In this document: positions 4,416 to 58,190 of the stretch, one piece after another | Position numbering within the stretch: the first letter of the stretch is position 1 | Layout: each line of letters starts with the position of its first letter | NCBI GenBank assembly: GCA_964016885.1 | Contig: OZ024743.1 | Location: 302,002,001-302,066,000 of the forward strand | Direction: 5' to 3' | DNA length: 64,000 nucleotides | DNA from: Eledone cirrhosa | Lineage: Eukaryota | Program-made: the position numbers and the translations under genes | Notes under the pieces: generated by a model | Told to the model about the DNA's origin: nothing | Databases searched by the model: none | The model's input: only the letters and a program-made list of their open reading frames with translations

Positions 4416-4852
4416 GTCGATTCGACTTCCATGTACGTAAATACTCATCTTTTTCCATTTCTCCGAGGGTTCTTAAACCCCACTATCAGGCTAAATCATT
4501 GCTTTAATTTCTTTAGTCAAAATACGGCGATAGCTTACATTTCTAATAATTTCAAACCCACTCGCTCTTTCGAAAATATTCTTACTTGACATTACAGTCG
4601 CTAAGTTTATTGCTTCTAATTTGAATGAAAAAAGACGGGTGATGTGTTGGTGTAAATGGTAGCACTGTGGTCTGTATAACCAACGATGTGGGTTCGACTC
4701 CCATGTACGTCCATACTCATCTTTTTCCATTTCTCCGAGGGTTCTTAACCCTACTATCAGGCTAAATAATTCTTTTATTTCTTTAGTCAAAATACGGCGA
4801 TAGCTAACATTTCTAAAAATTTCAAACCCACTCGCTATTTCGAAAATATTCT

Positions 4853-5018: not shown

Positions 5019-5060
5019 GTTTTCTTCTGATGAAGGACTAGCATCCGAAACATTAAAACC
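5019..5060 (+). ncRNA. Minimal hammerhead-like motif, family I (degenerate)
   Basis: CTGATGA-a-GGA ctagca TCC-GAAAC-ATT. The homologue at 60498-60525 has GAAACGTT and shares about 70 bp of downstream sequence. Stem I is poor. Confidence 0.5.
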
Positions 5061-11777: not shown

Positions 11778-13139
11778 GATGTGTGTGTGTTTGTGTGTGT
11801 GTGTGTGTACGTAAATAATATATTTATTGCTCTAACTCGTCTACTACCCTATGCTTCAGCCAAAAAAAAACGTCCTCACCCACCAAATTCGTCTTATCAT
11901 ACGCAGAGCTCTCAGTCTCCTAGACATGGCTTGCGCCCATAGGCTCGACAGGTGTCCTATGTATATACATATATATATATATATATAAATTAATAAAAAC
12001 AATGAAATAAAAACAAAGAACAAGCCTCCATATTAATTTCCCTATATTAAACAAATTAATCATTTTACGATCGTTTCTGGGATGTATAAAATGATGATTT
12101 TTTTTTAATATAAGGAACTTGTTCTTTGTTTTTGTTTCATTGTTTTTATTAATTATCTTGACTCTGTTTTCCTATGATTTATATCGAAAATGTGTGAATG
12201 TATTTTCTCTTTTCATGATATTCGGAGTTCTTCATTTGGAGTTCTTCATACGTATTGGACACTACCGTATATTTGGTAGATTTATCTATACATATATATA
12301 TATATTTCGTTTCTGATATTGTTATGCTTGGGGGGGGGGGGGGCATGCTGCCAATAAGAAACACACGCTCCAGTTGCTTGCAATTCCAATTTATTATAAA
12401 TTAAATTTATAAATTTAAGAATTTATAAATTTCCGGTTGGTTGGTTGGTTCCACAACCGGACGGTTGTTCATATATTGTGAAAGTTCTTTCGTCACACAT
12501 TATGTGACCTCTTGAGTGACTGGGGATTATTTCCTTTGTTGTGTGCCTCTCCTTTGTTCTGTCCTACGCCATCTTGTTTGTGTGTGTGTTGTGTGCTTAG
12601 TTTGCGCATGCGTTACATCCGGGTGTATGTGCGTGTTTTTATGTGTTTATTTATTTGTTTATTAACATGTTACTGGTTGGTTGTTTGTTATGTGTGTGAG
12701 TGCGTTTTCATTTTGTCCTTAATTGTAAGTTGTGATGTTGCTATTCCATTCATGTTTTCTATTTAATGTTGGTTGGAGTTCATTTATGTTTATTGCCTCT
12801 CTGATTTGTCTAAACATTGCGTCTTTTCTGTGTGTAGATTCTATTGTTATTTCTATGTTCTCTAATTTGCCCTTATGTTCTATTTTAGCATGTTGGGGTT
12901 GTATTGATGATTATTTTGTTTATCTTGAAGCTGTCGCCGGTGTTCATTTAACCGTTAGACTATACTACGAGCTGTCTCACCTATTTACACTATATTCTAA
13001 TATTTACTTTGTCCTTAAGTACATCGTATGCTATATACTACATTTCTAGTGTTACAGTTAATATGGGGGCTTAGTTTACAGATTATGCATTTCTCATCTA
13101 TACAGGAGGTCTTTGAAAAGGGTATGTATTGCTAATAAG

Positions 13140-14385
13140 TGTTTTTATGGAGGTACCTGGTCTTTCTACTATATAATATTAAGTTTAAGTTTATCTAGGG
13201 CCCTTCTAAATGTGTAAGCTAATTCACCTCTAGGGGTTGTATTGATGAACATTACACTCTGGTAATTATTCCTATCATACCATGAGTTTATTCTATTAAC
13301 CTTATTTCGAATTCTTTCTATTCTATTCCAAAAGTTGCTCCTATACAAGGGGCATGTCCCATTTGCATCATTATTTACCATTTTTCCCATCTGGCTCTGG
13401 CTCCTCTATATACTCTGATTTTATCACTCTGATTGTAACCAGAGAACTGCATACGGTGGATGAAGTGTTTTATGTGTCTCTCTAGTTCCTTGGGGTTGCA
13501 CATGCGGGACATGTTACGCATCACCCGTACCAATCCTCAATCAGTATGTTCATTTTGGTGTGATCCGAAACAGCTGAGTTTCGGTGGATCAGATATTTGG
13601 AAGTCATGGGTTTGGCATAATGAGAATGGAGGATGTGTCTCTTGTTATTAATGGTTTTTAACCAGAGCTATGTGTCTAGTACAGGTAATCAATGGTTGGG
13701 GTGTTTCCTTGTGTAGTCTATAGTAACTCTAATACTCTGTTGGATGGAGTTAGCTATTTGCTGGATGCTTTCCATGGTGTTTTTCTCTAGTTCCTGACTG
13801 TTCTCTAGTGGGGGTGTTTTTACTATGCTGTTTATATCATCAAAGTAGCGGGAGTACATTATCAGGGTTAAGAGGTTGTTGTCTTATAATTGTTCTCTCA
13901 GTTTAAGTTTAAGTTTATTATTCCACCATACCATGAATAGGTTAGCTATGTCACCTGCAATGCTAACACCAATGGCTGCTCCCTCCTCCTGGGCATATGT
14001 TTTTGCATTAAATTTGAACATATGTTCCTTAAGGGTTAGTTTTATACTGGCCCCCACCGCATGTGCAATCATTTTGTTTAGTTCATCATGAGGTTCGGGT
14101 GCTGTATGTCTCAGGTCCACCCGTTCCACCTTTCTGTGTGGGTTTTCCTGGCCATTGAGGTAATGGTAGATGGTCTGCCTCTTGCTGGTCTTGTAGGGCA
14201 GAGGTTGCTAATGTCATACGTGTCTAGATAATCTTTAATATAGGTAAATTTAAGTAGGGGTCCCAGCTCACTGGTATCAATCCCACGGAATTCAACATTG
14301 CTCTCGCTGATCATTTCTACGCATTTCTCCACAGCAAAATCCACTAGAGGCCAATACATCGCTATGATCTTTTCCCCCAATCAAA
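13140..14385 (-). pseudogene. Penelope-like element reverse transcriptase, disrupted
   Basis: LKEHMFKFNAKTYAQEEGAAIGVSIAGDIANLFM, then after a stop an in-frame MYSRYFDDIN catalytic motif; thumb-like SVMFINTTPRGELA; frameshifts and stops. Confidence 0.8.
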
Positions 14386-14659: not shown

Positions 14660-14711
<52 letters not shown>

Positions 14712-15125
14712 CAAATAACGAAACGAAATTTAATTTCGTTTCGCTTCTAACTCACTTTTGTATGACTGACGCTTAAACAATTAAGTTAAAGTGTACATCT
14801 ACATATGTATACGGAAGTACTAGTATGCATATAAATACACACATGTATACATATGTACATGTACCGAGTTTTTCACTAGACACTTTACAGGGAGTGTCCA
14901 GCTAGTCTGTATGTAAACAAACAGACGAACCGGGTTTTAAAGTCATACGAGTTTTCAAGGAAACACACTTCCTCTATTCTCCAGAGAGCCAGACAGAACC
15001 GCTGAACCGGTGCGTACAATGACTCACGTTCTATGCAAATTAGTCTGCCCACTACTGATTTTCATAGAAAAAGCATATAACGATATGTGCTTTTACAATT
15101 CTCCAGAGAAGCCGGAAGATGGGTT

Positions 15126-15168
15126 ATATTGCTGATGAGATGTAATAACATCGAAACTAGTCCAATAT
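15126..15168 (+). ncRNA. Intact minimal type I hammerhead ribozyme (family C, copy 1)
   Basis: Stem I ATATTG/CAATAT; CTGATGA 15132-15138; stem II GATGT-aata-ACATC; GAAA; palindromic stem III ACTAGT; GUC site, cleavage predicted after 15162. Confidence 0.92.
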
Positions 15169-15595
15169 TCCTGTCTGACTCTCTGGAGAATAGAGGAAGT
15201 GTGTTTCCTTGAAAACTCGTATGACTTTAAAACCCGGTTCGTCTGTTTGTTTACATACAGACTAGCTGGACACTCACTGTAAAGTGTCTAGTGAAAAACT
15301 CGCTACATGTACATATGTATACATGTGTGTATTTATATGCAAACTAGTACTTCCGTATACAGATGTAGATGTACACTTTAACTTAATTGTTTAAGCGTCA
15401 GTCATACAAAAGTGAGTTAGAAGCGAAACGAAATTTAATTTCGTTTCGTTATTTGTTTTTATCGTTTCCGCTGAACCGGTGCGTACAATGACTCACGTTC
15501 TATGCAAATTAGTCTGCCCACTACTGATTTTCATAGAAAAAGCATATAACGATATGTGCTTTTACAATTCTCCAGAGAAGCCGGAAGATGGGTAT

Positions 15596-15638
15596 ATATT
15601 GCTGATGAGATGTAATAACATCGAAACTAGTCCAATAT
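15596..15638 (+). ncRNA. Intact minimal type I hammerhead ribozyme (family C, copy 2)
   Basis: Identical to 15126-15168 and 470 nt downstream; cleavage predicted after 15632. Confidence 0.92.
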
Positions 15639-16029
15639 TCCTGTCTGGCTCTCTGGAGAATAGAGGAAGTGTGTTTCCTTGAAAACTCGTATAACTTTAA
15701 AACCCGGTTTATCTGTTTGTTTACATACAGACTTGCTGGACACTCACTGTAAAGTGTCTAGTGAAAAACTCGGTACATGTACATATGTATACATGTGTGT
15801 ATTTATATGCATACTAGTACTTCCGTATACATATGTAGATGTACACTTTAACTTAATTGTTTATATATATATATATAAATGGAAAAGGATGAAACGAAAT
15901 TTGATTTCTAACTCTTAGTACGGCTGATACTTAAATATATGTATGTACACATACATACATATATCTATACAGACGTACCATAGTATGTATATATATATAT
16001 ATACATACATGTACACACACACACACACT

Positions 16030-16121
<92 letters not shown>

Positions 16122-16242
16122 CACGTATGGGTTTACCGAACATTTATTATAATGTTCGGTTCGTTTGTAAAGAAACACCCCGAATAACGCCGTACAGTGT
16201 TTGGCAACCATCGTCGCCTTTTTGTTAAACACTGACACAGGA

Positions 16243-16285
16243 ACGATGTACTAGTTTGAAGCTTACTAGCTATCGTTAGCATTGT
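16243..16285 (-). ncRNA. Degenerate hammerhead, family C' (element ~15878-16490)
   Basis: ACAATG-CTAACGA-TAGCT agta AGCTT-CAAAC-TA-GTA-CATCGT; positionally homologous to family C. Confidence 0.6.
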
Positions 16286-16489
16286 ATACCTCTCAGTCAG
16301 ATGATTGAAAGTTTGAACGTATGTACTTTCCTTATGCATATTAATGGCTGAGCAGCCTAATTTACATATCGAGTGAGTTAGTCGGCCGGGCGAACCGAAA
16401 AAGATAAATGGAAAAGGATGAAACGAAATTTCATTTATCACTCTTAGTACGGCAGATACTTAAATGTAAGTATGTACACGTGCATACAT

Positions 16490-17092
16490 ATGGTGGCTGC
16501 CAACTTGTTTTCGAGTACGGCCACTACTTTATATCCATGTAGGAGAACCCCTACTGATGTGCTGAACGAGTGTGACTTTTTCGTCCAGCCAGCGACTTGA
16601 AAACTCTGGTACAAACACTACACTTGTGACAATTATTGACACATAGTGCTGAGCCCATGGTACCATGTGATGACAAGTGCAGAGAGATCTCCAGATATAA
16701 AGCAATGCCTGTGTCGTGAATCTTTTATAGTGAGCAAAGGCACTGCCCAAAGCCAGTCCCACTCTCTTAACCAAGATGATATTTACCAAAAAGAAGAACA
16801 AGTTAACATCATTGGATACCATCAGGGTTGCAGGTGTGATATCAGAGTTTTCCTTCTCCTAGAATTCTGCCTTGACAAAGGCTAAGGGGTCATCTCTCCC
16901 GGTGATTTTGGATGGCCATTGACTCTTAAGAGCTCCTTTGCCCTTTGACAGGTTTTATTTTTAGTCCTGCAGGATGTCCAAAGTCACCCTCCTCACCAAG
17001 AAACCTTGGTGGGGTTGCCAGTTTAGTCGCCAACGACCCGACCATGGGACAGGTTGTACCGGGATGCATGTTACCAGTAGCACCAACAAAGA
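16490..17092 (-). mobile_element. Non-autonomous bipartite RTE-derived element
   Basis: The 3' part encodes a decayed RTE-type C-terminal zinc finger (intact in the copy at 54518-54715: [22 protein letters not shown]). It is fused to a GC-richer non-coding 5' segment also found at 39240-39362. Confidence 0.6.
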
Positions 17093-17537
17093 CATATATA
17101 TATCTATATACATACATACACACAGACATAGATGCCTGTCTACACACATACATACACATGTATATATATACATACATATACATATGGATGCCTACACACA
17201 TACAATCAAATGATAATATTCCAATTACGGACTCAATACATGGTGTCTCGTCGTTAGTAGTGGTAGTGGTGGTTGGGTGTAGTGGTTGATGGCAGTGATG
17301 GAGTTGGCGTCTAGCATATATGTATACATACGTACACTAGTATGTATATATATATACATACATGTAGAAATATACATATGTACGTATGGGTTTACCGAAC
17401 ATTTATCCTTTTCCATTTATCGTTTTGTTTCGCCCGGCCGACTAAATCCATGGATATGCAAATTAGGCTGCTCAGCCGTTAATATCCTTAAGGAAAGTTT
17501 ATACTTTCAAACGTTCAATCATCTGACAGAACGGTAT

Positions 17538-17580
17538 ACGATGCTGCCGATAGCTAATAAGCTTGAAATTAGTACATCAT
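17538..17580 (+). ncRNA. Degenerate hammerhead, family C' (element ~17320-17800)
   Basis: ACGATG-CTGCCGA-TAGCT aata AGCTT-GAAAT-TA-GTA-CATCAT. Confidence 0.6.
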
Positions 17581-17792
17581 TCCTGTGTCAGTGTTGAACA
17601 AAAAGGCGACAATGGTTGCCAAAACTGTACGGTGTTATTCGGGCTGTCTGTTTAGAAACAAACCGAACGTTATAATAAATGTCAGTACACCCATACGTGC
17701 ATATATATATATATATAAATGTACATGTATGTATATATATATACATACTACTGTACTTCAGTATACATATATGTATGGACGTGTACATACTT

Positions 17793-20052: not shown

Positions 20053-20621
20053 TCGCATCACCGCCACCGCTGCCTCGGTATCGACATCACCGCCACCACT
20101 GTCTCAGTATCGCCAACGCCGCTAGTCTCTGCTGGCTACCACTTCCACATTATAGAATCCCTACTACTAACAAAGAGGAAGGCATCAAAATATATAGATA
20201 GACTCAAAAGAAAAAAGAAAAAACAAACAACAAAAGCAGCACAGCAACAACAGTAAAAAACGAGAAAAACAGAGAAAAACAAAAACAAAAAAAGAAACCC
20301 CAAAAACGTAAAGAAAATAAGAATGAAGAGAGAAGCAGGCGGACGGACAGAGAAGAGGGGGGGAAAAGTAAAACTTAAAAAACAAAAACTAAGTCGGACA
20401 TTCGAATACTACATTACAATGAAACTTATGCTTATTCATTTTTGGGGCCCTTTCTGCCCGTGTGTTTGTTTGTTTATGTGTGTCCGTATACAGCGTGGTG
20501 ATAATGCCACACAAGGGCCAAGTGGGATGGCGGATCCACAGATGGCTATGTAAACATACATTCGCCAATCCTCGATAAGAGTGTTTAAATATCGAACATA
20601 AACAGTTCGAATAACGGTGAA

Positions 20622-23600
20622 ATGGAGACTAGAACGTCATGTGACAGACTCTCACCCAACAGGTGCCCCCTGGCTCAGCAGCAGGAACCTGACTGTCAAC
20701 GAAATACTGCTGATGTTGGAGGAAGAAGAAGAAGGAAAGGGGCCAGAACCAACTGGACGAAAGAATTGAATAGAACTGTTATGCAATGCTACCTGAAAAG
20801 TAACCCCAAGGAGAGGGGCTACAGGAGACGGATGCATAACATCTGGAACGAGATTGGTTTATTTAAATTAGATGAACAAAAATTGGCCGGGCAGGCTCGG
20901 GTAATAAGAACTAATGGGTGGATAAGCGAGCTGGAACTGGAGGAACTGAGCAGAGAGAATGGCTTGGAGATGGCGGGTGTAGTATGCCAGACAAGCGAGC
21001 CGGCGGGAAATGAAGGTGAGGAGGTCCTGAGAGCGAAGGAACCACCCGAAGCAGACAATGATCTGAATACTGAGATAAATAATACCTGGAACAGAGATAC
21101 GGCCACTGAGGAGATGAATGCTGACGGGCTAGGACAAGATTCGGTTGACATCCTAAATTTAGTGGTAGATGAGTTGAACAATGATAGTGGGAGACCTATG
21201 AACCTAAGATTTGTAGACAGGAAAAAGTTAAAAGAAACAACAGCTAAGGTAAACAAAGTCATCCCATACCTTGAGGCGAGGAGTCTTCACCAGTGCAACA
21301 ATATCCTCAAAGCAACAGCAAATACGGTGAGGAAACTACTTGGTATAAAAGCGAGAGGAAACAACAGACAAGAAAGAGCAGAGCCGTGGTGGAAGAAGCG
21401 ACTGAGTGGGCAAATCGGGGAAATGAGAAATGACATAGGAAAGCTTGAGTCACTACTGAATGGGACACTAAAAAACATAGGCACTAAAAATAGACTGGAA
21501 ATAAAATACAAAACTAGGAGTAAAAAGCTAAATATTATCATAGAGGAATTGAAGCAACGCATTGTAGCAAAGAGTGCCAAAATCAGGCGATACGAGAACA
21601 GAGTCAGTCAGTATAAACAGAACCGCATGTTCGACAACAGCCAGAAGATGCTGTTTGGACAGCTTGAGGGGAAAGAAAGAGGCACCGACTTGATCCCTGG
21701 GGCGGAACAAGCTAAAACATTCTGGAGAGGAATATGGGAGCAGGATGTTAGACACAATGCCCAGGCAGGGTGGATTGAGACAGTACAGAGGGAGATCGGT
21801 GAGCAGGCACAGCAACAGACTGATTTGAGTATCACAGTTGAAACTCTTAAGGGGCAAGCCAAAAAACTAACCAACTGGAAATCACCAGGCCCAGATGGTG
21901 TGCAGGGGTATTGGATTAAACATTTAACATCCCTCCACCCGAAGCTGACGGCCACGTTCAATGACTGCTTGGTGTCGGGTGAGGTGCCAGAGTGGTTGAC
22001 AAAAGGTACCACAGTTCTGATAATGAAAGACCAAATCAAGGGTAATGATGTCACCAACTATAGACCTATCACATGTCTGCCCGTAATGTGGAAACTGTTG
22101 ACGAGCATTGTGTCTGAGGAAATCTACCATCACCTCCACACAAACAACTTGTTGCCGGACGAACAGAAAGGATGCCGAAAGAAGTCACGTGGTACAAAGG
22201 ACCAGTTGCTTATTGATAAGATGGTAATGGGGAATTGCAGGAGGAGACACACTGATCTTGCCATGGGATGGATAGACTACAGAAAGGCATTTGACATGGT
22301 GCCTCATTCCTGGATCACCAAAAGCCTGGAGATCTTCAGGGTGGCAGATAGCATCAGACAGTTGCTGGGCAGGAGTATGGGGTCCTGGGAGACAGAGTTG
22401 ACATCAACTGGAGTATCCTTGGGAAGCGTGAAGATCAAGAGAGGTATCTTCCAGGGAGATAGCCTGTCCCCTCTGTTGTTTGTCCTTGCCCTGATGCCCT
22501 TGACCATTATGCTGCGAAAAGTGAGAGCAGGATACAAGTTGGGAAGGGGAGAGCTTACCATCAATCACCTCCTCTTCATGGACGACCTTAAGCTCTTCGG
22601 GAAAAGTGAGAAGGAGTTGGATGTGCTTGTTGACACTGTCCGTATTTTCAGCAGTGATATATGTATGCAGTTTGGTATTGGTAAATGTGGAGTCATTGTG
22701 ATGAGGAGGGGTAGGTTGAGCAGAAGTAACGGGATCCAGATACCAACAGGTGAGATGATAAAGGAAATTGACTCTGAGGAAGGATACAAGTATTTGGGCG
22801 TTCTGGAGGCTGATGGCATAAAGAACAAAAAAATGAAGGAATTGTTAAGAACTGAATACATTCGGAGAGTAAGGAGCGTATTGAAGTCACATCTGAACAG
22901 CAGAAATGCCATAAGCGCAGTAAATTCCCGAGCTGTGTCTATTATTAGGTACAGTGCGGGAATTCTGAGATGGAATGTTGCTGAACAAAAAGAAATGGAT
23001 AGGAAGACTAGGAAGCTATTGACTATCTACAACATGTTCCACAAGAGGAGTGATGTCGATAGACTCTACCTAAGGAGATCTGAGGGTGGAAGAGGTCTTA
23101 TCAGCATAGAGGACTGTGTTCAGATGGAGAAAAACAACCTATACAAATACGTGACCTATAGTAAGGAGCCAATGCTCAGAGCTGTACTGAAGGAGGGGAC
23201 AGTAGGCCAGGGGATACCCAAGGAGGAAATAACATCAAGGAGGAAGAGCAGCCTTAAGGGAAAATCCCTTCATAGTACCTTCTTTGAGAAAACTGAATTT
23301 AGAGATCCACAGACATGGAACTGGTTGAGAAGAGGAGACCTCAAAAAGGCTACAGAAGGAATGCTAATGGCTGCGCAGGAGCAGGCCCTCAAAACGAAGT
23401 GGTTGAAGCACCATATCTACAAGGAGGAGGCTAGCCCACTGTGCAGGATCTGTGGAGAGAGAGAGGAGACTGTGGCTCACATTGTGTCCGAGTGTAAACA
23501 CCTAGCCCAGACCCACTATAAGGGCTGGAGACACGATGTGATGGGCAGGGTGATCCACTGGCACCTGTGCAAAGTAAACAATCTACCACATTCTGAGAAA

Positions 23601-24014
23601 TGGTATGAGCATAGGCCAGAGGCGGTGATGGAGAACAATCAGGTGAAGGTGCTGTGGGATTTTAGGATACAGACGGACAAAAAACTGGAACACAATAGAC
23701 CTGACCTGGTGGTTGTGGACAAAGAAAAAAGATCGTGCCTGATTGTGGATGTGGCCTGCCCGTTCGACACGAGAGTGCAAGAGAAGGAGAGGGAGAAAAT
23801 TAACCGATACCAGGACCTAAAGTGGGAGGTGAAAAGGATTTGGAACTGCCATGAAGTCAAAGTGATCCCGATTGTCATAGGCGCACTGGGGACTATCTCC
23901 AAAGGTTTCCAGGGATGGTTAAAGAAAATCGGCCCCTTCACGCTTTTTGGAACGCTTCAAAAGGCATGCTTGCTTGGAACGGCAAGAACCCTCCGATACG
24001 TCCTGAATATCTGA
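20622..24014 (+). CDS. R4/Dong-clade retrotransposon protein: reverse transcriptase + CCHC zinc knuckle + restriction-like endonuclease (1130 aa)
   Basis: KSPGPDG, NYRPITCLP, WIDYRKAFDMVPH, GIFQGDSLSPLLF, HLLFMDDLKL; CRICGEREETVAHIVSEC; RHD, NRPDLVVVD, KINRYQDL, PIVIGALG; no APE domain; uninterrupted. Confidence 0.95.
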   Translation: METRTSCDRLSPNRCPLAQQQEPDCQRNTADVGGRRRRKGARTNWTKELNRTVMQCYLKSNPKERGYRRRMHNIWNEIGLFKLDEQKLAGQARVIRTNGWISELELEELSRENGLEMAGVVCQTSEPAGNEGEEVLRAKEPPEADNDLNTEINNTWNRDTATEEMNADGLGQDSVDILNLVVDELNNDSGRPMNLRFVDRKKLKETTAKVNKVIPYLEARSLHQCNNILKATANTVRKLLGIKARGNNRQERAEPWWKKRLSGQIGEMRNDIGKLESLLNGTLKNIGTKNRLEIKYKTRSKKLNIIIEELKQRIVAKSAKIRRYENRVSQYKQNRMFDNSQKMLFGQLEGKERGTDLIPGAEQAKTFWRGIWEQDVRHNAQAGWIETVQREIGEQAQQQTDLSITVETLKGQAKKLTNWKSPGPDGVQGYWIKHLTSLHPKLTATFNDCLVSGEVPEWLTKGTTVLIMKDQIKGNDVTNYRPITCLPVMWKLLTSIVSEEIYHHLHTNNLLPDEQKGCRKKSRGTKDQLLIDKMVMGNCRRRHTDLAMGWIDYRKAFDMVPHSWITKSLEIFRVADSIRQLLGRSMGSWETELTSTGVSLGSVKIKRGIFQGDSLSPLLFVLALMPLTIMLRKVRAGYKLGRGELTINHLLFMDDLKLFGKSEKELDVLVDTVRIFSSDICMQFGIGKCGVIVMRRGRLSRSNGIQIPTGEMIKEIDSEEGYKYLGVLEADGIKNKKMKELLRTEYIRRVRSVLKSHLNSRNAISAVNSRAVSIIRYSAGILRWNVAEQKEMDRKTRKLLTIYNMFHKRSDVDRLYLRRSEGGRGLISIEDCVQMEKNNLYKYVTYSKEPMLRAVLKEGTVGQGIPKEEITSRRKSSLKGKSLHSTFFEKTEFRDPQTWNWLRRGDLKKATEGMLMAAQEQALKTKWLKHHIYKEEASPLCRICGEREETVAHIVSECKHLAQTHYKGWRHDVMGRVIHWHLCKVNNLPHSEKWYEHRPEAVMENNQVKVLWDFRIQTDKKLEHNRPDLVVVDKEKRSCLIVDVACPFDTRVQEKEREKINRYQDLKWEVKRIWNCHEVKVIPIVIGALGTISKGFQGWLKKIGPFTLFGTLQKACLLGTARTLRYVLNI

Positions 24015-24100: not shown

Positions 24101-25770
<1,670 letters not shown>

Positions 25771-28700
25771 ACGTAAAGAAAATAAGAATGAAGAGAGAAA
25801 CAAGCGGACGGACAGAGAAGAGAAGGGAAAAACTAAGTCAGACATTCGAACACTACATTACAATGAAACTTATGCTTATTCATTTTGGGCGTGTTTTCTG
25901 CCTGTTTGTTTGTTTGTTTATTTGTGTTCGTCTACAGCGTGGTGATAATCCCACACAAGAGCCATGTGGGGCGACGCAACCACCGGAGACGGTGAATCAA
26001 CAGATGGTTATGTAACCATACATTCGCCAATCCTCGATAAGAGTGTTTAAATATCGTACCTAAACAGTTCGAATAACGGTGAAATGGAGACTAGAACGCC
26101 ATGTGACAGACTCTCACCCAACAGGTGCTCCCTGGCTCAGCAGCAGGAACCTGGCTGTCAACCAAATACTGCTGGTGTCGGAAGAAGAAGAAGAAGAAGA
26201 AGAAGGAAAGGGACCAGAACCAACTGGACGAAAGAATTGAATAGAACTGTTATGCAATGTTACCTGAAAAGTAACCCCACTGAGAGGGGCTATAGGAGAC
26301 GGATGCATAACATCTGGAACGAGATTGGTCTATTTAAATTAGATAAACGAAAATTGGGCCGGCAGGCTCGGGTAATAAGAACTAATGGGTGGATAAGCGA
26401 GCTGGAACTGGAGGAACTGAGCAGAGAGATTAGGTTGGAAATAGAGAGAGGAGTATGCCAGGCAAACGAGCCAGTGTGAAATGAAGGTGAAGAGGTTGAG
26501 AAAACGGAGGAACCATCCGAAGCAGACAATGATCTGAATACTGAGATAAATAATACCTGGAACAGAGATACGGCCACTGAGGAGATGAATGCTGACGGCC
26601 AGGACAAGATTCGGTTGACATCCTAAATTTAGTGGTAGATGAATTGAACAATGATAGTGGGAGACCTATGAACATAAGATTTGTAGACAGGAAAATGTTA
26701 AAAGAAACAACAGCTAAGTTAAACAAAGTCATCCCATACCTTGAGGCGAGGAGCCTTCACCAGTGCAACAATATCATCAAAGCAACAGCAAATACGGTGA
26801 GGAAACTACTTGGTATAAAAGCGAGAGGAAACTAAAGACAAGAAAGAGCAGAGCCTTGGTGGAAGAAACGACTGAGTGGTCAAATCAGGGAAATGAGAAA
26901 TGACATTGGAAAGCTTGAGTCACTACTGAATGGGACAATAAAAAACATAGGCACTAAAAATAGACTGGAAATAAAGTACAAAACTAGGAGGAAAAATCTA
27001 AATATTATCATAGAGGAACTGAAGCAACGCATTGTAGCAAAGAGTGCAAAAATCAGGCGATACGAGAACAGAGTCAGTCAGTATAAATAGAACCGCATGT
27101 TCGACAACAACCAGAAGATGCTGTTTGGACAGCTTGAGGGAAAAGAATGGGGCAACGACTTGATCCCTGAGGCGGAACAAACTAAAACATTCTGGAGAGG
27201 AATATGGGAGCAGGATGTTAGACATAATGACCAGGCAGGGTGGATTGAGACAGTACAGAGGGAGATCGGTGAGCAGGCACACCAACAAACTGATTTGAGT
27301 ATCACAGTTGAAACTCTTAAGGGGCAGGCCAAAAAACTAACCAACTGAAAATCACCAGGCCCAGATGGTGTGCAGGGGTATTGGATTAAAAATATAACAT
27401 CCCTCCACCCGAAACTGACAACCATGTTCAATGACTGCTTGATGTCAGGTGAGGTATCAGAGTGGTTGACAAAAGGTACCACAGTTCTGATAATGAAAGA
27501 CCGAATCAAGGGTAATGATGTTACCAACTATAGACCTATCACATGTCTGTCCGTAATGTGGAAACTGTTGACGAGCATTGTGTCTCAGGAAATCTACCAT
27601 CACCTCCACACAAACAACTTGTTACCGGACGAACAGAAAGGATGCCGAAAGAAGTCACGTGGTACAAAGGACCAGTTACTTATTGATAAGATGGTAATGG
27701 GGAATTGCAGGAGGAGACACACTGATCTTGCCATGGGCTGGATAGACTACCGAAAGGCATTTGACATGGTGCCTCATTCTTGGATCACCAAAAGCCTGGA
27801 GATCTTCAAGGTGGCAGATAACATCAGACAGTTGTTGGGCAAGAGTATGAGGTCCTGGGAAACAGAGTTGACATCAACTGGAGAATCCTTGGGAAGCGTG
27901 AAGATCAAGAGAGGTATCTTCCAGGGAGATAACCTGTCCCCTCTGTTGTTTGTCCTTGCCCTGATGCCCCTGACCAGTGTACTGCGAAAAGTGAGAGCAG
28001 GATATGGGTTGGGAAAGGGAGGGCTTACCATCAATCACCTCCTCTTCATGGACGATCTTAAGTTCTTCGGGAAGAGTGAGGAGTTGGATGTGCTTGTTAA
28101 CCCTGTCCGTATTTTCAGCAGTGATATATGTAAGCAGTTTGGTATTAGTAAGTGTGGAGTCATAGTGATGAGGAGGGTACGTTGAGCAGAAGTAACGGAA
28201 TCCAGATACCAACATGTGAGATGATAAAGGAAATTGACTCTGAGGAAGGATAGAAGTATTTGGGCGTTCTGGAGGCTGATGGCATCAAGAACAACAAAAT
28301 GAAGGAATTGTTAAGAACTGAATACATTCGGAGAGTAAGGAGCGTATTGAAGTCACATCTGAACAGCAGACATGGCATAAGCGCAGTAAATTCCCGAGCT
28401 GTGTCTATTATTAGGTACAGTGCGGGAATTCTGAGATGGAATGTTGCTGAACAAAAAGAAATGGATAGGAAGACTAGGAAGCTATTGACTATCTACAACA
28501 TATTCCACAAGAGGAGTGATGTCGATAGACTCTACCTAAGGAGATCTGAGGGTGGAAGAGGTCTTATCAGCATAGAGAACTGTGTTCGGATGGAGAAAAA
28601 CAACCTACACAAATACGTGACTGATAGTAAGGAGCCAATGCTCAGAACTGTACTGAAGGAGGGGACAATAGGCCAGGGGATGTCCAAGGAGGAAATAACA

Positions 28701-29553
28701 TCAAGGAGAAAGAGCAACGTTCATGAAAAATCCCTTCATAGTACCTTCTTTGAGAAAACTGAATTTAGAGATCCACAGACATGGAACTGGTTGAGAAGAG
28801 GAGACCTTAAAAAGGCTACAGAAGGAATGTTAATGGCTGCGCAGGAGCACGCCCTCAAAACGAAGTGGTTGAAACACCATATTTACAAGGAGGAGGCTAG
28901 CCCACTGTGCAGGATCTGTGGAGAGAGAGAGGAGACTGTGGCTCACATTGTATCCGAGTGTAAACACCTAGCCCAGACCCACTATAAGGGCTGGAGACAT
29001 GACGTGATGGGAAGGGTAATCCACTGGCACCTGTGCAAAGTAAACAGTTTACCACATTCTGAGAAATGGTTTGAGCATAAGCCAGAGGCGGTGATGGAGA
29101 ACGATCAGGTGAAGGTGCTGTGGGATTTTAGGATACAGACGGACAAGGAACTGGAACACAATAGACCTGACCTGGTGGTTGTGGACAAAGAAAAAAGATC
29201 GTGTCTTATTGTCGATGTGCCCTGCCCATTCGACACGAGAGTGCAAGAGAAGGAGAGGGAGAAAATTAACCGATACCAGGACTTAAAGTGGGAGGTAAAA
29301 AGGATTTGGAATTGCCATGAAGTCAAAGTGATCCCGATTGTCATAGGCGCACTGGGGACCCTCTCCAAAAGTTTCCAGGGATGGTTAAAGAAAATCGCCC
29401 CCTTCACGCTTTTTGGAACGCTTCAAAAGGCATGCTTGCTGGGAACAGCAAGAACCCTCCGATACGTCCTGAATATCTGAGGTTGCAGGTAGTGGCTTGA
29501 TATTCATTCCAACGGACTTTCCAGTTAACTAACATCAATGACTGAGATTCAAG

Positions 29554-39118: not shown

Positions 39119-39361
39119 GTATTTATATATATAGGAAAGTGTATGACCCCGACGTCAGAGCACAAGCCGTATGTATGTATATATATATATGTATGTATGT
39201 ATATATGTATATGTGTATATATGTATGTATAAGGGTCAAGGGAGCTCTTAAGACTCAATAGCCATCCAAAATCACCGGGAGAGATGACCCCTTAGCCTTT
39301 GTCAAGGCAGAATTCTAGGAGAAAGAAAACTCTGATATAATACCTGCAACTCTGATGGTAT

Positions 39362-39404
39362 ACAATGCTGACGATGGCTAATAAGCTTGAGACCAGTACA
39401 TCGT
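39362..39404 (+). ncRNA. Degenerate hammerhead, family C'
   Basis: ACAATG-CTGACGA-TGGCT aata AGCTT-GAGAC-CA-GTA-CATCGT, fused directly to an RTE-derived 5' segment at 39240-39362. Confidence 0.6.
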
Positions 39405-39634
39405 GCCTGTGTCAGTATTGAACAAAAATGTGACGTGGTTGCCTAAACACTGTACGGCTTATTTCGGGCTGTTTGTTTATTTACAAACAAACAAACCGAG
39501 CATTATAATAAATGTTCGGTAAACCGATACGTGCATATATATATATATATATATATATGTGCAAGTATGTATATATATACATACTTCTGTACGCCTGTAT
39601 ACATATATGTATGTATACATACATACATACTTAC

Positions 39635-39691
<57 letters not shown>

Positions 39692-51969: not shown

Positions 51970-52642
<673 letters not shown>

Positions 52643-57145: not shown

Positions 57146-58190
57146 TCAGGGCGGTTGGTTTATCATAGAAGTGTTAATCCAGTTACAGATCAGATGCGAT
57201 TTCAGAGGAGGACAGCATCTGAAGATCTCAGTCTTTGAGTTAAGGCAATCGGAAGTGGCTCTCAAGTTTAGCAAAATCCTATACTTTTCGGTGGTACACA
57301 AAGAACAATTCTTTGTGCTCCTTTGGTATTCCCTCGAATGGTCTAATATAGACCAATCAATAGAGTACGGGATGTTACTATCCTTGAGATCCCATACCTT
57401 ACTTGCGAGGGCCGTTGATGTTCGTTTATCGGAGTGCTTAAAAGAAGCGACATGTGAGTAAAATCTGATTTTAAACCTGTCCTGGGTCATACCGACATAT
57501 CGCTCACTCCTGGCTGTCTGGTTGTTGATTACTGGCGTTATCTTAGCCTCATAAACGACAGATTTTGTGTTACATTTACCCTGCAATGGGCATTCATCCG
57601 GCTTCCTGCAACTGCATCCTGGATTTATTCTCGTACGGTTTGAACTGGTGATTTTGGACTTCATAGATGGGCAACAAGAGTAGCTGATCTTAACTACATT
57701 CCTATTAAAAATCTTATAATATCTATGATTACGAGGAACATGTTTGTCTAATAGTTGAAGGAATTTCCTTCCTACATTAGTTTTGACAGTTAGAGAGAAG
57801 GGGGGTGTGAAACAAATAATCTTCCTTTTCCTGTTATTATGGTTAGTTTTAGGGGGGGGGGGGGGGAGTAGGTAAATAAGAATTTTTTTCTGTAAAACCG
57901 CTGTTCTTAAGGGCTTTATTATAATATGGGTCGGCTTTATTAAAAATGTCTATAAACGAAGATAAGGTAGAAATCCCACGGCTAATGTTAGGAATAAGAT
58001 TATTAAAAACTATAGGGGGATGGCAAGACTCTTTGTGTATATACCTAAGATTTTCATTAGGTTTATGATAGGGTTTAAAAGAGGCAGTAAGTAGATCAAG
58101 ATTAATATCAATAAAGTTAGCATTAGTAGGGTTCGTATCTATAGTAATTTTAAGGTTAAGATTAGCAAAAGTATTGATTAAATCTTTACG
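57146..58190 (-). pseudogene. PLE RT thumb + linker + GIY-YIG endonuclease (5'-truncated; 57146-57664 open)
   Basis: FIDINLDL..KPYHKPN..HPP; RKRKIICFTPPFS..NRNVVKISYSC; CSCRKPDECPLQGKC, SVVY..YVGMT..FKIRF..H, CSLCTTEK, LNSKTEI. Confidence 0.9.

Follow-up and report, generated by a model that had tools for sequence, protein, structure and literature searches.

The window (the whole 64,000-nt stretch of Eledone cirrhosa DNA analysed) holds one insertion of a tandem element that is non-coding, has a 469-nt unit and bears a type I hammerhead motif. The element is probably moved by a Penelope-like retrotransposon (PLE), which likely copies a unit-length RNA circle. Rare mutation clusters that are common to all units of single insertions suggest that each of these insertions was likely copied repeatedly from one RNA circle by a Penelope-type retrotransposon. 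If this is true, single RNA molecules have been fossilised in the genome, giving genomic proof of the circle step that has been proposed for retrozymes and PLEs since 2014, and any animal genome could be put to the same general test of that step. The question addressed is how the tandem arrays of a known element class originate. Circle, template-jump and linear models can be separated from sequence and RNA, and the family supplies insertions in their thousands that are young, well assembled and bounded by two fixed ends; in some, clusters mark single templates.

The locus itself is ordinary: it is one insertion of a high-copy family (Table 1). The whole insertion, 14705-15863, is two-armed and has (TA)n on either side, and inspection of insertion flanks indicates that these tracts mask any target-site duplications. 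The first-pass annotation had described tandem units of about 470 bp and an inverted partial unit. The tandem exists, amounting to 1.84 units that are 97.7% identical. The inverted piece is also present, but it is the second arm of the same insertion and not a separate unit. The earlier statement that there is no real ORF holds: in a doubled unit the longest open frame has 64 codons, and the longest ATG-started one among the frames listed has 38.

Table 1. Features of the insertion and related copies nearby (positions in the window)
Feature	Position	Strand	Basis
(TA)n target tract, left flank	14661..14704	.	sequence
Arm 1, unit 173-464 (inverted); outer end = fixed 464 end (inferred RT start site 1)	14705..14996	-	sequence comparison; 2,189 such ends genome-wide
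Arm 2, full unit (1-469), 469 nt, non-coding	14999..15467	+	sequence comparison, ORF scan
Predicted hairpin holding most A>G cluster sites of other insertions (unit 35-59); contains ATGCAAAT octamer	15032..15072	+	fold prediction
Type I hammerhead 1, with 6 bp in stem I, 5 bp in stem II and the palindrome ACUAGU as stem III; cleavage predicted after 15162 (C17)	15126..15168	+	pattern, Rfam, covariation
Predicted cut-to-cut monomer, 470 nt	15163..15632	+	fold prediction
Tail of PLE type, 69-74 nt, flanked by the two fixed ends; hairpin about 15424-15448	15394..15462	+	
Arm 2, terminal unit 1-395; outer end = fixed 390/395 (inferred RT start site 2)	15468..15863	+	1,782 such ends genome-wide
Type I hammerhead 2, core identical to hammerhead 1; predicted cut after 15632 (C17)	15596..15638	+	pattern, Rfam
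(TA)n target tract, right flank	15864..15878	.	sequence
Decayed sister-family copies	15875-16490	-	
Decayed sister-family copy	17316-17700	+	
Decayed sister-family copy	39357-39679		

Near-identity of the units had been read as a sign of recent insertion. It cannot be called very recent: 10 unmasked columns vary among its three pieces, while several other insertions show no such difference. Over the columns compared, its majority sequence is identical to that of five other insertions, and there are private changes in its pieces. At least two of the four private alleles of its first unit occur together in 0 of 166 other insertions, and for this reason it looks like a daughter copy and is probably not a source. 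A transcript reading through from upstream would include a 292-bp inverted repeat, which would pair most of unit 1. Three runs of one sample, their kind unknown, yield contigs that span 14999-15295 in numerous short variants, and a fourth run yields none, a result that speaks neither for nor against expression; the hammerhead core pattern has 0 matches in metagenome contigs.

Two identical hammerheads 470 nt apart had been claimed, and a sequence pattern search finds them, with CTGATGA at 15132 and 15602. Both read GATGT/ACATC in stem II, then GAAAC-TA-GT-C, with ATATTG/CAATAT as stem I, and stem III is the palindrome ACUAGU only, as had been noted. A loose hammerhead core pattern gives 5 matches in the window against 0.15 expected, and at least 5 were reached in 0 of 100 shuffles. 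Rfam Hammerhead_HH9 hits both copies at 33 bits (E about 1e-5), the gathering score of 52 not being reached. The earlier reading of dimer-type hammerheads is supported as a prediction. The hammerheads of the D. virilis Penelope type and of axolotl Amex1 are described in the same terms, with a 2-bp helix III, a 2-nt palindromic loop and predicted dimer action (PMC4209133, PMC7229834); set against them, H17 is C or U in this family and mostly A in a sister family. Published work reports that short-palindrome hammerheads act as slow dimers (PMC4209133, PMC6765202), that the minimal hammerheads of PLEs cleave slowly even in dimeric form (PMC4209133), and that only 1 of 9 Xenopus retrozyme dimers cleaved in vitro (10.64898/2026.07.22.740005). 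Folded as a circle, the monomer has a predicted energy of -145.6 kcal/mol (z -8.4 against 100 shuffles) with 69% of it paired. A ViennaRNA fold of the whole transcript contains no pairing between the two palindromes, and their isolated duplex comes to -6.2 kcal/mol.

Genome searches were pattern counts over the 3.0-Gb assembly holding the window. The exact hammerhead core occurs 1,463 times, a control pattern 0 times. Ends at unit 464 followed by AT repeats number 2,189, ends at 390/395 followed by TA repeats 1,782, and head-to-tail junctions between units 7,304; these three counts are minimum figures, and copies of a subfamily about 87% identical are among them. The first-pass candidate belongs to a high-copy tandem family inserted at over 2,000 sites in the genome, with at least 2,189 insertion ends. 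Units are 465-470 nt long, and subfamilies lie up to about 13% apart, yet every array is uniform.

Three samples were compared. Sample 1 is the first 100 among the 2,189 listed 464 ends, all on contig 1 (L132, a duplicate of L131, was left out of variant counts). Sample 2 is 40 insertions not previously sampled, taken among the first 100 of the 390/395 ends listed (L243 has no alignable piece), and sample 3 is 39 loci (38 insertions) from earlier matches. Samples 1 and 2 were therefore each selected through one end, 464 or 390/395. An inverted arm is present in 68 of the 100 insertions of sample 1 and a short inverted stub in 12; 14 lack both, 5 extend beyond the stretch that was retrieved, and 1 was left unparsed. 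In the same sample the outer end of readable inverted arms falls at 385-395 in 61 of 66 (19 at 390, 35 at 395). When all samples are taken together, two-armed insertions with both ends read pair 464 with 390/395 in 95 of 105 cases; 395/395 occurs twice, 464/464 never, and 8 show other combinations. The two exceptions with a 395 end on both arms are L270 and L279. Far-end flanks contain (TA)4+ in 88 of 92 cases, the window background being 13%. As we read the sequence, two fixed outer ends (464 and 390/395) lying in (TA)n are the signature of a PLE tail. At one place, L007/L008 (G000:C3:77329717-77334087), every full unit is followed by one that is some 38 nt shorter, an alternation suggestive of either a dimer template or a DNA-level duplication.

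The element class has already been described, and by its sequence the family is a new member of the animal non-LTR retrozymes, or non-autonomous PLEs. That it is a non-autonomous, PLE-mobilised retrozyme, as the first-pass annotation had supposed in part, we regard as very probable. The assignment to non-LTR retrozymes is made because each tandem unit has a type I hammerhead with at least two in a row, the unit is non-coding and by its architecture without LTR, copies are mobile and dispersed, and the predicted monomer is highly self-paired. Mobilisation by a PLE is indicated by the partial tandem, the inverted 5'-truncated arm and the one-ended tail. An RT plus GIY-YIG ORF between pLTRs, as in an autonomous PLE, was not found in the sampled insertions.

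Several relatives can be compared. With non-LTR retrozymes of animals, as portrayed in available portions of two accounts (PMC7229834; 10.64898/2026.07.22.740005), the family shares a non-coding tandem unit of a few hundred nt, a type I hammerhead per unit, GC under 50%, a strongly self-paired predicted circle and co-occurrence with PLEs. Its unit is longer than the 170-400 nt circles shown for animal retrozymes and lies within the preprint's range of 51-972 bp. Two-armed insertions with two fixed ends, and edit clusters running across units, occur in this family and are absent from those portions of the two accounts. The layout of partial tandem, inverted 5'-truncated arm and one-sided tail, together with (TA)n targets and a hammerhead in the repeat, is that reported for EN+ Neptune and Hydra PLEs (Craig et al. 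2021, PMC8557442). Unlike these, the family has no ORF, its tail is 69-74 nt long where theirs is given as 30-40 nt (60 nt in the Neptune-type neighbour in the window), and none of the PLE pLTRs that were inspected in this genome matches it in sequence. Non-autonomous Chlamys elements, according to the same source, also make multicopy head-to-tail insertions, in a clade mostly without canonical hammerheads. In the green anole element Poseidon PAc (Frangieh et al. 2024, PMC11167929) the tail is defined by two RT start sites, and both target strands are cut and extended at AT-rich DNA; in our family two such sites likewise appear to flank the tail, and both strands would be cut and extended in the same way. 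Neither strand prefers a site in the anole system in vitro, whereas here the two arms use different sites in the 95 of 105 cases counted above. The anole hammerhead is dispensable in vitro, whereas the core of ours shows no inherited change.

What does the RT copy? Circles have been shown for coral, mussel and axolotl retrozymes, with tandem cDNA made from circles as a proposal (PMC7229834), and circles have been proposed as RT templates (PMC4209133, PMC7229834). If the template is a monomer circle, each insertion should have one haplotype with star-like later change. If it is a linear multimer, unit-specific variants should be inherited in register. A rather unlikely alternative is a non-autonomous PLE copied from uncut linear multimer transcripts, with the hammerhead as a slow or idle passenger and the arrays enlarged and homogenised later by unequal exchange and gene conversion. 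The anole PLE is a precedent, since it inserted uncut RNA in vitro (PMC11167929). On divergence alone homogeneous linear sources would be possible, because the nearest other insertions, at 0.5%, are as close as units of one insertion (0.66% within arms in 60 insertions and 0.66% across arms in 48, the median between insertions being 4.9%). Moreover, 5 alleles in L139, L182 and L183, and one more, ambiguous, in L128, are common in register across arms, the pattern expected from a linear multimer, and periodic shared variants in four long arrays (L100, L149, L169, L178) mean that some later DNA-level expansion occurs. Against these stands the lack of any overall in-register signal. Variants within an insertion are confined to one unit in 320 of 359 cases; between arms, in-register pairs differ by 0.81% and others by 0.75% (33 insertions, p 0.35); and variants recurring between insertions are in register in 14 of 45 pairs, with 12.2 expected. 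No core change is inherited. Unit-specific variants lack the A>G bias expected from unit-by-unit editing of a multimer (51 vs 50), and locus-private A>G clusters extend through all covering units, those of L140 lying on both inverted arms of an insertion with 0.1% internal divergence.

A circle would be unnecessary if the RT went over a linear monomer, cut out by the hammerhead, again and again, passing each time from the 5' end to a 3' end by a jump, and this would likewise yield one haplotype per insertion and common edits. We consider it improbable: the cut site shows no accumulation of arm 5' ends (7 of 275 at unit 160-172, 7.6 expected), and spacing across that site is kept in 453 of 456 passes, so that length changes (3/456) show no excess over controls (0/413, 2/418, 3/470). 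The absence of such gathering, together with the kept length, favours a ligated circle over jumping between cut ends. Least probable of all is that the copies lack a life cycle of their own and are what is left of the pseudo-LTRs of an autonomous PLE after truncation. Animal retrozymes are said to derive from PLE pLTRs (10.64898/2026.07.22.740005), and most minimal hammerheads are reported to sit in truncated PLEs (PMC4209133). However, no junction to a PLE ORF was found in 100 sampled insertions, 15 of which have PLE coding matches within 4.5 kb that are separate neighbours; at least two intact tandem cores are present in 47 of 99; head-to-tail junctions run to thousands; and arrays are uniform even though subfamilies have diverged. 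The unit is therefore not simply a PLE pseudo-LTR flanking an RT, which the first-pass annotation had named as the competing reading. A circular monomer seems to us the likely usual template. Star-like units, locus-private clusters in all units and the lack of a cut-site pile-up are our reasons for proposing rolling-circle copying of one, probably ADAR-edited, monomer.

Three clusters bear on this proposal. L140 differs from L151 solely by three A>G changes in 18 nt. The resulting pattern occurs 4 times in the assembly, always within the L140 insertion and on both of its inverted arms, which means that a read error specific to one strand is not the cause. Relative to L159, L141 has 10 A>G changes and 1 G>T, and every L141 unit that spans these sites has them; that pattern has 3 occurrences in the assembly, all within the L141 insertion. 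The triple A>G of L116 has 70 occurrences at 7 loci, recurring every 468 nt without a gap in arms as long as 17 units, and it fills arrays of 19, 7, 8, 25, 2 and 8 units plus one single copy. The best explanation of the three clusters would be A-to-I editing of one monomer followed by repeated copying, with ADAR as the presumed enzyme. Alternatively, a source may be absent from the assembly, or conversion may have taken place between the arms. In sample 1 inherited changes on the hammerhead strand comprise 35 A>G and 10 T>C (25 and 7 when polarised by neighbours). This excess was not replicated in samples 2 and 3, that is, in 70 further insertions (8 vs 7); without the three clusters the total becomes 21 vs 14 (p 0.31), and a sign test per insertion gives 19 vs 10 (p 0.14). 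We rejected a family-wide A>G bias on the failed replication. In the fold predicted for the window monomer, 11 of the 14 A>G sites checked are paired, one of these 11 being already G there; this is a weak indication, since pairing involves 64% of all A. In L184, two T>C changes lie next to each other. A literature search covering few subscription papers, in the text available, found no published evidence of mutation clusters marking single template molecules.

Other features of the substitutions may be mentioned. Over all sampled insertions, the share of transitions is higher among changes present in all units (73:20) than among those confined to one unit (255:213; p 1.6e-5). The latter include 96 G>A and 58 C>T on the hammerhead strand.

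The following cycle can be proposed. A locus with two or more units would be transcribed, neighbouring hammerheads would pair via ACUAGU and release the monomer, and a host ligase would close it. The structured RNA would sometimes be A-to-I edited. A PLE RT/GIY-YIG protein acting in trans would cut both strands of a (TA)n tract, and priming would take place at unit 464 on one strand and at 390/395 on the other. Both cDNAs would extend past the cut site, reaching lengths between 0.1 and about 29 units, and then join, leaving two outward-facing arms with random inner ends. For a fuller reading we see the chances as evenly balanced: ADAR-type A>G clusters would have arisen on one hammerhead-released circle and been written into every unit of both arms, the PLE RT would work by rolling-circle copying with two-site priming, and edited circles would have founded new lineages (7 loci, up to 25 units).

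Conservation of the hammerhead core is borderline. Changes fixed in all units of an insertion number 0 in the 15 core/palindrome columns and 145 elsewhere, with 8 and 314 one-unit changes respectively (p 0.063); over the whole hammerhead motif the sparing does not reach significance (p 0.51). In stem II a compensatory pair is seen, where A-U has changed to U-A by linked substitutions. With the structure drawn from the window hammerhead and 7 related sequences from two families, 12 of 21 hammerhead pairs have changed on both sides and 90% of cells are paired. On this comparison the hammerhead appears conserved and covarying, and self-cleavage is a prediction. The sister family is older, with a unit of about 430 nt that is homologous along its length; core and ACTAGT are kept and the stems are compensated. 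It is arrayed elsewhere, at L220 and L236. The exact ATGCAAAT octamer is found in 33 of 43 sister-family copies. For an snRNA-type promoter octamer, newt satellite 2 is a precedent. The case for such a promoter here is weak and we set it aside: 0.095 octamers per unit are expected by chance, and the L116 lineage spread without one.

No partner RT element was found among the sampled insertions and the PLE families inspected, and no sequence shared with the pLTR of an autonomous PLE turned up in the few families inspected. A hairpin pattern used to search for the partner has 0 matches in the assembly. Other ACTAGT hammerheads, of which we inspected 46 loci among the 100 of 746 matches listed, belong to the sister family or are mutated copies and have no linked ORF. 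Pfam gave no family for six PLE proteins, and the clade names used here rest on motifs compared with those in PMC8557442. The neighbouring PLE at about 12.3-14.3 kb was considered as parent and rejected: it belongs to an older family (88-93% between copies), has another hammerhead and shows no real match to the unit. It is a decayed Neptune-type element with RT, linker and GIY-YIG and many stops (about 12277-14340, minus strand), and its family displays the same two-end pattern, with a 60-nt tail, TA flanks and a hammerhead without stem III. A Hydra-type PLE fused to a unit array in L032 (G000:C6:50865000-50871700) was likewise dismissed as partner, since a pLTR of its own is present and the fusion seems to have arisen by a deletion with microhomology. 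That element is nearly intact, with one frameshift and near-identical pLTRs.

Other elements in the window can be listed briefly. A C-terminal fragment of a Hydra-type PLE ORF with a CxCx5C linker lies at 57146-57949 (minus strand). Hammerhead-like cores of different sequence at 5027-5051 (plus) and 52237-52261 (minus), similar to ones that recur at other loci, probably come from other PLE families. An open 1,141-aa non-LTR retrotransposon ORF at 20589-24014 (plus), which we take to be R4/Dong-like, has RT, a C-terminal zinc finger and a restriction-like endonuclease motif, with decayed relatives at 24377-29480. Finally, a tRNA-like match of 40.6 bits at 4641-4712 (plus) is possibly the head of a SINE.
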